Shown here piece after piece: positions 36,733 to 58,680 of a stretch of DNA of 64,000 nt. Position numbers and translations under genes: made by a program. Origin of the DNA: Eledone cirrhosa (taxonomy: Eukaryota); assembly GCA_964016885.1 (NCBI GenBank), contig OZ024740.1, positions 194,618,001-194,682,000 on the forward strand. Direction: 5' to 3'. Under the pieces are notes generated by a model. That model was not told the DNA's origin and did no database searches. It worked only from the letters and a program-made list of their open reading frames with translations. Numbering within the stretch: position 1 is the first letter of the stretch; each line of letters opens with the position of its first letter.

Positions 36733-36775
36733 ACGATGTACTAGTTTCAAGCTTGTTAGCTATCGTCAGCACCGT
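36733..36775 (-). ncRNA. Type I hammerhead ribozyme (family A)
   Basis: Reverse complement: ACGGTG-CTGACGA-TAGCTAACAAGCTT-GAAA-CTAG-TA-CATCGT. Confidence 0.8.
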
Positions 36776-36849
36776 ATACCCTTCTGCCAGATGGTTGAAC
36801 GTTCGAAAGTATATACTTTCCTTATGAAAATTAACGGCTGAGCAGCCTA

Positions 36850-36857
36850 ATTTGCAT
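36850..36857 (-). promoter_or_regulatory. Octamer motif ATGCAAAT upstream of the family A hammerhead
   Basis: Perfect ATTTGCAT on + strand, conserved in the family A copies covering this segment (12089, 60674, 61146). Confidence 0.45.
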
Positions 36858-37149
36858 ATCGAGTGAGTTCAGTCGGCCAGGCGCACCGAAAACGATAAAT
36901 GGAATAGAATGAAACGAAATTTCATTTCTCACTCTTAGTACGGCACTTACTTAAATGTAAGTATGTATGTATATGTACATACATATATGTATACAGACGT
37001 ACAGTAGCATGTATATATATATATATATATATATATATATATATATATATATATATATATATACATGCTACTGTACGTCTGTATACATATATGTATGTAC
37101 GTATACATACATACTTACATTTATATATATATATATATATAAATATATA

Positions 37150-37595
37150 CAATGATATTAAATAAATGGAAACTATATTTATAAAACCATATTTATTTTA
37201 TTATAAATATGTCAAGGGTACCAAGACAACATTGGTACGCTTTCATCAGATAAAATACAAAGTTTGTTTTATAAATAGAGACATACCCATGAAAATCATC
37301 CCTTATCGGTTGGAAATTCACTGGATTATCCAGTGAATTTCCAACCGATAAGGTATAATTTTCATGGGTATGTCTCTATGTATAAAACAAACTTTGTATT
37401 TTATCTGATGAAAGCGTACCAATGTTGTCTTGGTACCCTTGAAATATTTATAATAAAATAAATATGGTTTTATAAATATAGTTTCCATTTATTTAATATC
37501 ATTGAATATTTACTCCAGTAACTGTTGAGTGCTCTAAATCAGTTATAAACATTTATATTTATCGGACTTCCATCAAATTAAATACCCCATCTACT
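37150..37595. mobile_element. Family B: 355-bp palindrome (37150-37504) plus unique tail, flanked by (TA)n
   Basis: Arms reverse-complementary about position 37327. Homologues at 22789 and 52025. Confidence 0.88.
37397..37460 (+). ncRNA. Type I hammerhead ribozyme (family B)
   Basis: TATTTTAT-CTGATGA-AAGCGTACCA ATGTTGTCT TGGTACCCTT-GAAA-TATTTA-TA-ATAAAATA, with an 8-bp stem I. The mirror arm has GAAA mutated to GACA. Confidence 0.8.
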
Positions 37596-38713
37596 TATAT
37601 ATATATATTTATATATATATATATAAATCAGGATGGATTCAGTTTGAAATTGGTTAGACCATTACTCACAAGAGTATTCGATACTTTGGGTGGTAGAGTA
37701 TGGTTATATTATAAAGAGTCGGGACCCCGACGGCCGAGTTCTTGCCGTTTCAACAGCTAGTTCCAAATATATATATATATACATATATATGTGTGTGTGT
37801 GTGTTTGTACAATGTGTGTAGATGCCAGTCAGTTGTTATCATATAAAAATTTGAAATGTTGTGTATATATATATAATAGATGATGTCTTCAACTGTATTT
37901 CATAGTGGAGAATTTCATCGAAAGACCTTAGTAGAATAATGACTACATTGGCTTCTAATTTAATTATCTTTGTTTCTCACAAAAGAGGAAGAACTCAATT
38001 TTCACATACGACTCTTGGTGAACACTCGAATTGCTGAAACATCGTCACTGAGATGTAAGAAATTGAATAAATCAACTTATAAATCCACCAACTCTCTCCT
38101 CTCTTTCTCTCTTTTAATATATATACATACATATATATATATATATATATATATATATATATATGTATATGTATATGTATGTGTGTGTGTGTGTGTGTGT
38201 ATATATATAAGAGAGATGTATGTTAATATTCGTATTTGTTTGAATCAAATCCTTTAAAAGCAGAGTTTATTTTTATTCATAGCCAACATTTATGTATTAA
38301 TACCTTTGGAATAATTATTGCATAATTTTGTTAAATCCTTTTCGTTTTGTCACTATAATTTTTCAGTCATACAAATATAGTTACTTCCGTTCTTCTGGAA
38401 CTGCTGCAAGTAAAGATTTCCTTACTTTTAAGTTTTCTTCAATTCACCTTTGGTTTAATGAAATTTCCATAGATTTTCATTTATAGGCGCAGGCAATGAC
38501 CGTATAGTTAAGAATGTGTTTTAGAGTTACGTATATTCAGGTTCAGTCCCACTGTCTCCGATGCTGGGTGTCTGCCACTATAGCTTTGTATATGTGTGTA
38601 TATATATATATATGTGTCTGTGTGTGTGTGTGTGTGTGTGTGTATGTATATATATATATATATATATGAATATATATAGATATATACATGAGTGGTGGAT
38701 CATGCATGTAAAG

Positions 38714-38895
38714 TCACATATCTGACAAGACGAGTCGTGGTTGGTAAATCACAACAGTATTTTCCAAGTTTATTGTGAGGCCCAAACCACTGCAAACATC
38801 AGAAAAAGAGTTCATAATATTCTGCATGTCACTTTGTGAATGTGCAAGCAGATCGCAGTCATCTGCATACAAAACCACTCGGATTTTGGATATTA
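38714..38895 (-). pseudogene. RTE-clade reverse transcriptase fragment
   Basis: LYADDCDLLAHSQSDMQNIMNSFSDVCSGLGLTINLENTVVIYQP. Confidence 0.85.
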
Positions 38896-56992: not shown

Positions 56993-57267
56993 ATAAGTAA
57001 ATAAATAAAATAAAATAAAATAAGATAAATAAATACATACACAAGCACAATAACAACAAGCACATAAACACACACTAGTCACCCAGCAGACACAACACTA
57101 TACACACTAGTCACACAGCAAACATAACACTATACACACACGCAAACGCATGCGCAAAGAAGACAAAATAAAATAAACAAACAAGCAAATAAATAAATAA
57201 AGATATAGACAGACTGAATAAAAAATGGCGTAGACATACAACACAACAGGAGAAAAAAAAATATAAC

Positions 57268-57310
57268 ACCACTGACGATGTTGCAGATGTGCAACGAAAG
57301 ATTTATGTAA
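57268..57310 (+). ncRNA. Hammerhead core in the Penelope 3' region
   Basis: CTGACGA-T-GTTGCA GATG TGCAAC-GAAA-GATTTA. Stem II is perfect; stems I and III are very short. Confidence 0.6.
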
Positions 57311-58462
57311 ATTATGTAAACTATATATATGTGTTTGTGTCTATATTGTATCTGTATTATTTTTGACCGTCGGTCAGTCAATGGCAACATTGAGGACCGA
57401 TTAAGTTAGATCGCAGATATAAAAGACAGCGAGAAGCGAAAACCAACCAAACAGTGAGTGTGTTCTGTTATTAATTCTGGCAATATTACACAAATATGAC
57501 CCTCCCCAAGTATAACAATATTTGTTTCGACACACGATTTCATATAAAAAACCTCGCTAAACTATATATATATATATTATTTATGTTCATACACGAAACA
57601 AAAGCGCTACCTATGGTTTCGAGGCTCATTATTGACCATATCTCGAGGATGTAATAAGGATCAAATTTGAGACCTAGTTTTCAGATGTTTAGACGAGTTT
57701 GAAGATACCTCTAAATATATAGCTCGTTATATTCTTGTTTACAGAAACGTAGTATAACAAAAGTCAATAACTCAAAGATGTATATTTGAAATGGCTACGT
57801 AGGTGTACTCGTGCTTGTGTGTGTGCACTATAGCAAATATATTGTATTATGTAATATAGAGATTTTAATATTTATTAAGCTATGAAGTTGTGTAATATGA
57901 AAGGTATTATGTAAGTGTCGGAAAAGAAACGATATTAAGAAAGTATATAAATCAATATAAAGGTAGTTGAACATCAGATGAATTTGAGTGTCTCCATTAA
58001 CAAGATGTTGGCCTTTCAGATGTAGACATACTCCAAAAGATTTCGTTCTTTGATACCAAATAAATATTGATCGTAGACGACAAACCTTGTAATATTCTAA
58101 ATTTTTCAAAAATATATCTATATTAATATAGAGAGATGGTAAGGAATATATCATGACGCTGAATTAGTTTTGGTAAAAATTGATTTAATATGTCTTAGTA
58201 TAATTCACACTTCGTGAAATAAGTTCCAACTGTGTTCGGATAAATTGTTCCATAATTAAAATAAGTAGTGTGTGTGAAACAATTGTTCTCGGAAATGGGG
58301 AATTAACTGTTATGGAACTATTTCTATATATATATATAATCTGAGTTTTTCGAATATTAATAAAACATTCGATTCGTTTGCAATTTTGCAAACAAGCCTC
58401 AATTTTATAGCCATGTCAGTAGAATGAACACTTTATTCTTGCTCTTGTGTTGACATGCGAAA

Positions 58463-58503
58463 TGCAGACACTAATGTTTCTGGCATCACCCTTCATCAGT
58501 ACA
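58463..58503 (-). ncRNA. Type I hammerhead ribozyme (family F)
   Basis: Reverse complement: TGTA-CTGATGA-AGGGTGATGCCA-GAAA-CATTAGTG-TC-TGCA. GUC triplet. Confidence 0.7.
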
Positions 58504-58571
58504 GCTCACTGTTCACCTGCCAAACTGTCAGAGCTAGTGAAAATATATGCTATTTTCACAAATACACAGTG

Positions 58572-58680
58572 ACTGATCGGCCTGATTTGCATATTAGCAC
58601 ACTGGCTGATCAGTCAGATATGCATATTAGTAGATCCACTGATCAGCCAGATTTGCATATCAGCAGACTGGCCAGTCAGT
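58572..58680 (-). promoter_or_regulatory. Three 33-bp repeats, each carrying an octamer or near-octamer motif
   Basis: CTGATC.G.C.GATTTGCATAT.AG repeated three times (ATTTGCAT, ATATGCAT, ATTTGCAT). Confidence 0.5.

Follow-up and report, generated by a model that had tools for sequence, protein, structure and literature searches.

A putative U6-type promoter block ahead of hammerhead ribozymes in a retrozyme-like superfamily of Eledone cirrhosa

Octamer-linked hammerhead repeats in the window

Analysis of a stretch of 64,000 nucleotides (nt) from Eledone cirrhosa (assembly GCA_964016885.1, contig OZ024740.1, positions 194,618,001 to 194,682,000 of the forward strand; hereafter the window) revealed copies of two repeat families, designated A and F, in which a type I hammerhead ribozyme is preceded on the same strand by an exact octamer motif. 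A preliminary description of this DNA had proposed that these units carry an internal, octamer-dependent promoter of the small nuclear RNA (snRNA) type. Here, the copies and the block around the octamer were compared with each other, with the rest of the genome (3.0 Gb, microsatellite-rich) and with the snRNA promoters of the host.

A motif scan of the window located the exact octamers of family A at 36850-36857, 60674-60681 and 61146-61153 on the minus strand and at 12089-12096 on the plus strand, and a purpose-made type I descriptor (CTGANGA core) identified a hammerhead on the same strand as each of the four. The cores at 36769, 60593 and 61065 lie 80 nt past the octamer end, and the core at 12159 lies 62 nt past it. 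Distances to stem I were about 74 nt in the first three copies and about 56 nt in the fourth, so that the positions and the spacings of about 75 and 58 nt given in the preliminary description were accurate. The shorter spacing in the plus-strand copy (12086-12195, core 12159) is due to an 18-nt deletion that includes the TATA box.

The copy at 36450-37066 (-) is a partial tandem of 1.3 units whose 3′ end adjoins a (TA)n tract (36344-36445). Its octamer box, flanks included (36843-36860, -), resembles the box of the host U6, U6atac and RNase MRP promoters with a score of 17.4, and it is accompanied by a palindromic TATA box (36805-36820, -) in which TATATA begins at octamer start +42. The start site is predicted at 36785 (-), 30 nt past the TATA by analogy with the host TATA at −30, and the descriptor scan places the hammerhead, with a palindromic short stem III of the dimer type, at 36733-36775 (-). 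The second minus-strand locus (60257-61266) is a tandem of 2.2 units of 472 nt, containing the octamers 60674-60681 and 61146-61153 and the cores 60593 and 61065, with predicted starts at 60609 and 61081 (-). An inverted, 5′-truncated copy at 61272-61573 (+) has a hammerhead core at 61286 and lacks a promoter block upstream.

The family F copy contains three 33-bp repeats (58565-58670, -), with exact octamers at 58651-58658 and 58585-58592 and a one-mismatch variant at 58618-58625. The exact octamers are 151 and 85 nt, respectively, from the core at 58499. The three repeats and the onset of the octamers about 80 nt upstream of the ribozyme had been correctly recognized, with the correction that only two of the three octamers are exact and the middle one is mismatched. 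This pattern recurred in 30 F loci, taken as the top-scoring BLAST matches and thus not a blind sample: the exact octamer was present in repeat 1 in 27/30, in the middle repeat in 0/30 and in repeat 3 in 28/30. A TATA-like box lies at 58543-58549 (-), 43-45 nt past the start of the proximal octamer; the TATA matrix predicts a start at about 58518-58519 (-), and the descriptor scan located a type I hammerhead with short stem III at 58462-58503 (-). Upstream of the promoter block, T-runs at 58726-58736 (-) are a candidate terminator or priming site, and many genomic F copies stop at, or slightly before, the equivalent T-run.

The type I core is intact, and the sequence of stem I varies among families A, F, G, H, J and K yet still pairs (only partly in K3). 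In each octamer-linked hammerhead of the window stem III is short and near-palindromic, and short-stem-III hammerheads have been described as working in dimers (PMC4209133). The ribozymes were not called by Rfam at its gathering cut-off, and only microsatellite-driven microRNA matches were present among the 150 matches listed in an Rfam E-value scan. Folding energies of the ribozyme regions did not go beyond those of shuffled sequences (z-scores near 0).

Position of the octamer and kinship of the families

The raw number of octamers in the window showed a mild excess, with 11 observed against 6.3 expected and 3 of 100 shuffles reaching 11. Genome-wide, the pattern formed by the octamer, a gap of 75-100 nt and a hammerhead core on the same strand gave 31,219 matches, in comparison with 379 when the octamer was reversed (an 82-fold strand bias) and 6 when the whole pattern was read backwards. 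These figures reflect how many copies a few related families have, and the matches were not treated as independent events. Most of the 100 reversed-octamer matches listed resemble inversion junctions of the same families.

Position was also assessed in an octamer-blind sample (1.39 Mb) made up of 139 stretches of 10 kb taken at even intervals, which yielded 76 hammerhead-like matches, compared with 0 in the reversed sequence; these were grouped into 17 clusters by their core and downstream sequence only. An exact octamer was found 55-92 nt upstream in 13 of the 76, where 0.16 were expected, with none at other distances within 300 nt and three on the opposite strand. The 13 octamer-bearing hammerheads fall into five clusters (A, 8/9; H, 2/2; two G; one F). 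The genome-wide positional enrichment that the preliminary description had proposed to look for was thus found, and the data indicate that the enriched feature is the position of the octamer, not its raw number. When the whole superfamily described below was counted once, the positional test gave a p of about 0.03, and the pattern is therefore not evidence of independent convergence.

The units measure 472 nt in A, 441 nt in F and 466 nt in H arrays, 440-470 nt overall, and are non-coding and tandemly arranged. Families A and H align along the unit, F and G align upstream of the promoter, and family J, with promoter and ribozyme excised, still gives matches to A (E 1e-5) and to F (E 1e-6). Judging from these alignments, together with that of family M described below, A, F, G, H, J and M form one retrozyme-like superfamily, to which family K probably also belongs. 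The earlier view that A and F are unrelated was abandoned, as J bridges them, and convergent gain of the octamer in unrelated families was rejected on the basis of J and of the A-H and F-G alignments. Given the kinship of A and F, the shared block reflects conservation, not convergence. What is still informative once kinship is taken into account is the differential conservation of the box with respect to its neighbouring segments: the box has an identity of 0.94 in the comparison of A with F, against shuffle-level values of 0.53, 0.52 and 0.44 for the segments next to it.

Genomic copies include partial tandems, an inverted 5′-truncated copy and ends in (TA)n, a pattern described for Penelope-like insertions (PMC8557442). 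A search for an autonomous partner in the 1.39-Mb sample gave Penelope-like open reading frame matches that were not consistently associated with any of the hammerhead clusters. The 3′ ends of the copies cluster at or near T-runs, which fits RNA polymerase III (Pol III) termination and the internal priming of Penelope-like elements (PMC11167929) equally.

Resemblance of the block to host snRNA promoters

The comparison set was built from the host U1, U2, U5, U6, U6atac and RNase MRP genes, from which 15 RNA polymerase II (Pol II) promoters and five Pol III promoters, all non-redundant, were kept. Copies left out were near-identical members of arrays, U6 and U6atac copies lacking promoter flanks (five of each), two U6 copies interrupted by an insertion ahead of the start and nine regions failing the start-anchor match. 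An octamer box was present at −76 to −78 in all five U6, U6atac and MRP promoters (two with one mismatch), and in the three U6 promoter types it is accompanied by a TATA at −30. In a held-out test of the U6 layout, the octamer was found at −77 in U6atac (one mismatch) and in RNase MRP (exact). No exact octamer was present within 300 nt in any of the 15 U1, U2 and U5 promoters (two of them scanned on one strand only); these are built on another proximal element, near −57, together with a TATA-like box near −30. The two elements do not cross-match: the Pol II element matrix scored −1.8 to −6.7 on the five Pol III promoters, and the Pol III matrix scored at most 5.9 on the Pol II promoters. Of the 20 promoters, 11 contain a separate motif, the distal box, between −234 and −289; it is missing from host U6atac and MRP and is therefore not obligatory.

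In snRNA promoters of the vertebrate type, the octamer is the distal element at about −220, whereas here it lies at about −77 in host genes and at a predicted −72 or so in the elements. In this genome, then, the octamer is a proximal, Pol III-class-specific element, and the assumption of the preliminary description that it acts as the distal element was rejected, the distal box shared by host promoters being another motif. The proximal element of host U1 and U6 genes, a search for which had been suggested, was found for U1, U2 and U5 near −57; the U6 class has the octamer box instead. The host U6-type layout (octamer at about −77, TATA at −30, distal box at about −265) differs from those of vertebrates and insects and could be used for guide-RNA expression.

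Several promoterless U6 and U6atac copies (loci L122, L123, L126, L127, L130, L215, L216 and L218) were also noted in the host genome, a number of them beside (TA)n, and are apparently retrocopies. At L218, an inverted piece of family F is joined directly to U6atac, a junction that may have arisen when the same reverse transcriptase switched templates.

The Pol III box scored 9.5-19.7 in 13/13 element representatives, in comparison with 11-16 for host promoters in leave-one-out scoring and with a 99.9th percentile of 9.3 in the background; it has to be noted that 10 of these 13 were drawn from searches that required the octamer. In the blind sample, scoring of the flanks only (the 8-mer excluded) gave a mean of +4.9 for 19 octamers with a hammerhead core downstream, mostly of family A, versus −4.3 (sd 4.1) for 95 other genomic octamers. 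The extended motif also resembles the high-affinity POU site. Given this resemblance, the similarity of the flanks may be due to binding of POU factors in host and elements alike rather than to capture of a U6 promoter.

Downstream of the octamer, a TATA box is found at octamer +42 to +45 in 12/13 representatives, the exception being the 12089 copy, where it was lost. The Pol III TATA matrix predicts a start at octamer +70 to +73 in 10/10 representatives, on a purine in seven of them, and this predicted start would lie 15-27 nt ahead of the ribozyme core. The TATA contexts scored higher with the Pol III than with the Pol II matrix in 10/10 cases, with the caveat that the two matrices are of unequal depth. 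A conserved GGCAG lies at the predicted start but was not accepted as an initiator motif, since it also pairs in an extended stem I. From the predicted start, the sequence is free of T4 runs up to +220 in F, +273 in H and +341 in A, with A4 runs present there, and the T4 runs of these three families are confined to the stretch between copy end and start site.

Promoter class, proposed mechanism and related systems

The match of box, flanks and TATA to host promoters suggests that the repeats are likely to switch themselves on, and we consider it highly probable that the units contain a working promoter of either polymerase. Regarding its class, the octamer at about −77 is restricted to Pol III-class host genes, which points to a U6-like rather than a newt-like Pol II promoter. 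We accordingly lean towards an internal U6-type promoter of the Pol III class, formed by octamer and TATA ahead of the ribozyme, as the somewhat better bet. The core of the original proposal, an internal octamer-dependent promoter of the snRNA type ahead of the ribozyme, finds support in the sequence resemblance to host promoters; its premises of a distal element and of unrelated families do not stand.

Several observations weigh against the assignment to Pol III. The predicted octamer-start distance of 70-73 nt is 3-8 nt shorter than the 76-78 nt of the host, and in insect snRNA promoters spacing of this kind varies very little (PMC1761439). The host distal box is absent in A, F and H, with one weak match in a G copy (p 0.011). 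The T4-free body, not significant in individual families (background chance 0.31-0.42), was rejected as proof of Pol III; in several K copies, moreover, T-runs occur at about +90 to +120. Furthermore, propagation needs read-through, which the strong T-runs preceding the promoter would impede. The Pol III matrix is built on five promoters only, and the families, being related, are not independent tests. A search of sequencing runs retrieved no RNA run with the element, with one of 24 rows recorded as RNA (share 0.03). Common variants were absent from the octamer in four contig runs whose kind is not recorded, but not to a significant degree.

The same internal promoter might instead be read by Pol II, the block being a hybrid in which octamer and TATA are combined with a U1/U2-like proximal element, similar to the newt satellite; we consider this alternative serious but rather unlikely. 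The polymerase would then pass the T-runs and multimers would be made directly. Host U1, U2 and U5 promoters likewise combine their element near −57 with a TATA-like box near −30, and six of the 13 representatives (F, J and some K) match that element weakly (p 0.002-0.05), at the corresponding offset in F, J, J2 and K3 (p 0.002-0.03). In family F, each 33-bp repeat bears a motif at +16, with scores against the Pol II proximal element of 12.7, 3.4 and 5.7 in repeats 1-3, and the resemblance is apparent in repeats 1 and 3. The departure of the elements from host Pol III spacing and the extension of genomic copies in the 5′ direction across T-runs and promoter are also in line with Pol II. On the contrary, the absence of the octamer box from the 15 host Pol II snRNA promoters, the lack of a match to the Pol II element in A, G and H (p 0.15-0.77) and the preference of the TATA contexts for the Pol III matrix, within the limit of matrix depth stated above, argue against it.

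Family M adds a further point in favour of Pol II. It consists of a 310-nt hammerhead tandem without octamer (L269, C3:190000001-190010000, -; dispersed copies L301-L320), and its body is related to family G (E 3e-6). It shows a distal box with a score of 19.8 at about −259 from the predicted start, a TATA and a U5-like proximal element (p 0.019), all at U1-like positions; the distal match overlaps ribozyme stem I and may be structural, and the 11 sampled copies all come from one array. Tentatively, and with some doubt, one superfamily could have captured both host snRNA promoter classes, with most families carrying the U6-type Pol III form, M the U1-type Pol II form and F a hybrid.

It is less probable still that the block was simply inherited from one ancestor and kept for an RNA-level reason, or as a decayed promoter, with neighbouring promoters providing transcription. 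The single superfamily, the modest p when it is counted once, the pairing of GGCAG in extended stem I and the sequencing-run result are compatible with this explanation. It is at odds with how strictly box and flanks agree with a promoter box of the host DNA, with the retention of the box while neighbouring segments diverged to shuffle level, and with the mimicry of the other host snRNA promoter class by a second family. Finally, an accidental association with an 8-mer that is common where DNA is AT-rich, to which the mildly raised count in the window would conform, is refuted by the position count of the blind sample and by the strand bias, and we regard it as extremely improbable.

Under the favoured U6-type promoter, a POU factor would bind the octamer box and, together with TBP, start an RNA 15-27 nt before the ribozyme core. 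Most transcripts would end at T-runs 220-340 nt downstream, and multimers would arise when the polymerase occasionally reads through, or when Pol II uses the block. Dimeric hammerheads would cut these into monomers running from cut site to cut site, which would contain the promoter, so that the promoter would travel with the element. The monomers would then form circles, and a Penelope-like reverse transcriptase would copy them back into the genome, following the model of PMC7229834.

The closest known system is that of the metazoan non-LTR retrozymes (Cervera and de la Pena 2020, PMC7229834), which are reported to be highly and constitutively expressed. They resemble the repeats described here in having short, non-coding units in tandem, each with a single type I hammerhead and a short stem III, and Penelope-like elements have been proposed as their helpers. 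In the available portion of that paper no promoter is named, whereas here each unit, of 440-470 nt, contains a defined, host-like putative promoter block. The newt repeats, according to literature citing Coats, Zhang and Epstein 1994 and Cremisi 1992, are hammerhead tandems with an "snRNA promoter, Pol II"; newt satellite 2 is thus alike in its tandem hammerhead units and its internal promoter of the snRNA type, but there the polymerase is reported to be Pol II, whereas here the match is to a host Pol III-class box with a proximal octamer, and family M is nearer to the newt case.

The promoter of the Schistosoma Sm-alpha repeats is of the gene-internal A/B-box type, unlike the upstream-type octamer/TATA module of the present units. 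A Pol III promoter at the 3′ end of the cleaved Sm-alpha monomer transcribes the next tandem unit (PMC6765202). Self-promoting hammerhead repeats are therefore already known, of the Pol II snRNA type in newt and of the Pol III type in Schistosoma. The pLTRs of Penelope-like elements (PMC4209133, PMC8557442, PMC11167929) resemble the present repeats in their dimer-type hammerheads, partial tandems with an inverted 5′-truncated copy, (TA)n targets and internal priming; they differ in that the units described here have no open reading frame and no autonomous partner was found in the sample. Type 3 Pol III promoters such as mammalian H1 (PMC11340601) and insect U6 (PMC1761439) also combine octamer and TATA in a compact upstream region, with possible dual Pol II/III use, but in these systems one proximal element is common to U6 and U1/U2, whereas here the Pol III class has the octamer box instead.

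In the titles and abstracts covered, with subscription papers and supplements outside that scope, neither an octamer/TATA U6-like block in retrozymes nor the present host layout is described. Drivers of retrozymes have been named only for the single cases of newt and Schistosoma, and a block that copies host housekeeping small-RNA promoters would explain constitutive retrozyme expression.

Other hammerhead families, mostly with a long stem II, are present in the window at 37405 (+), 52123 (-), 22885 (-), 12824 (-), 51577 (+), 51283 (-), 41113 (-) and 39771 (-). None of these eight has an octamer within 400 nt, and they are possibly pLTRs of autonomous Penelope-like elements. A GIY-YIG-like frame at 42830-43267 (-), smaller than that at 55391-56992 (+), gave no Pfam match. 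Between the F and A copies lies a 593-bp tandem repeat (58915-60242), 99% identical. A retroelement 3′ end with a zf-RVT match is present in two copies, 96% identical to each other, at 30712-31761 and 62841-63889, and a tRNA-like match of 40.8 bits at 24852-24923 (+) is possibly the head of a short interspersed element. The frame at 3906-4658 (-) contains a 69-bp repeat and cysteine motifs, which presumably resemble the N-terminus of Helitron Rep.

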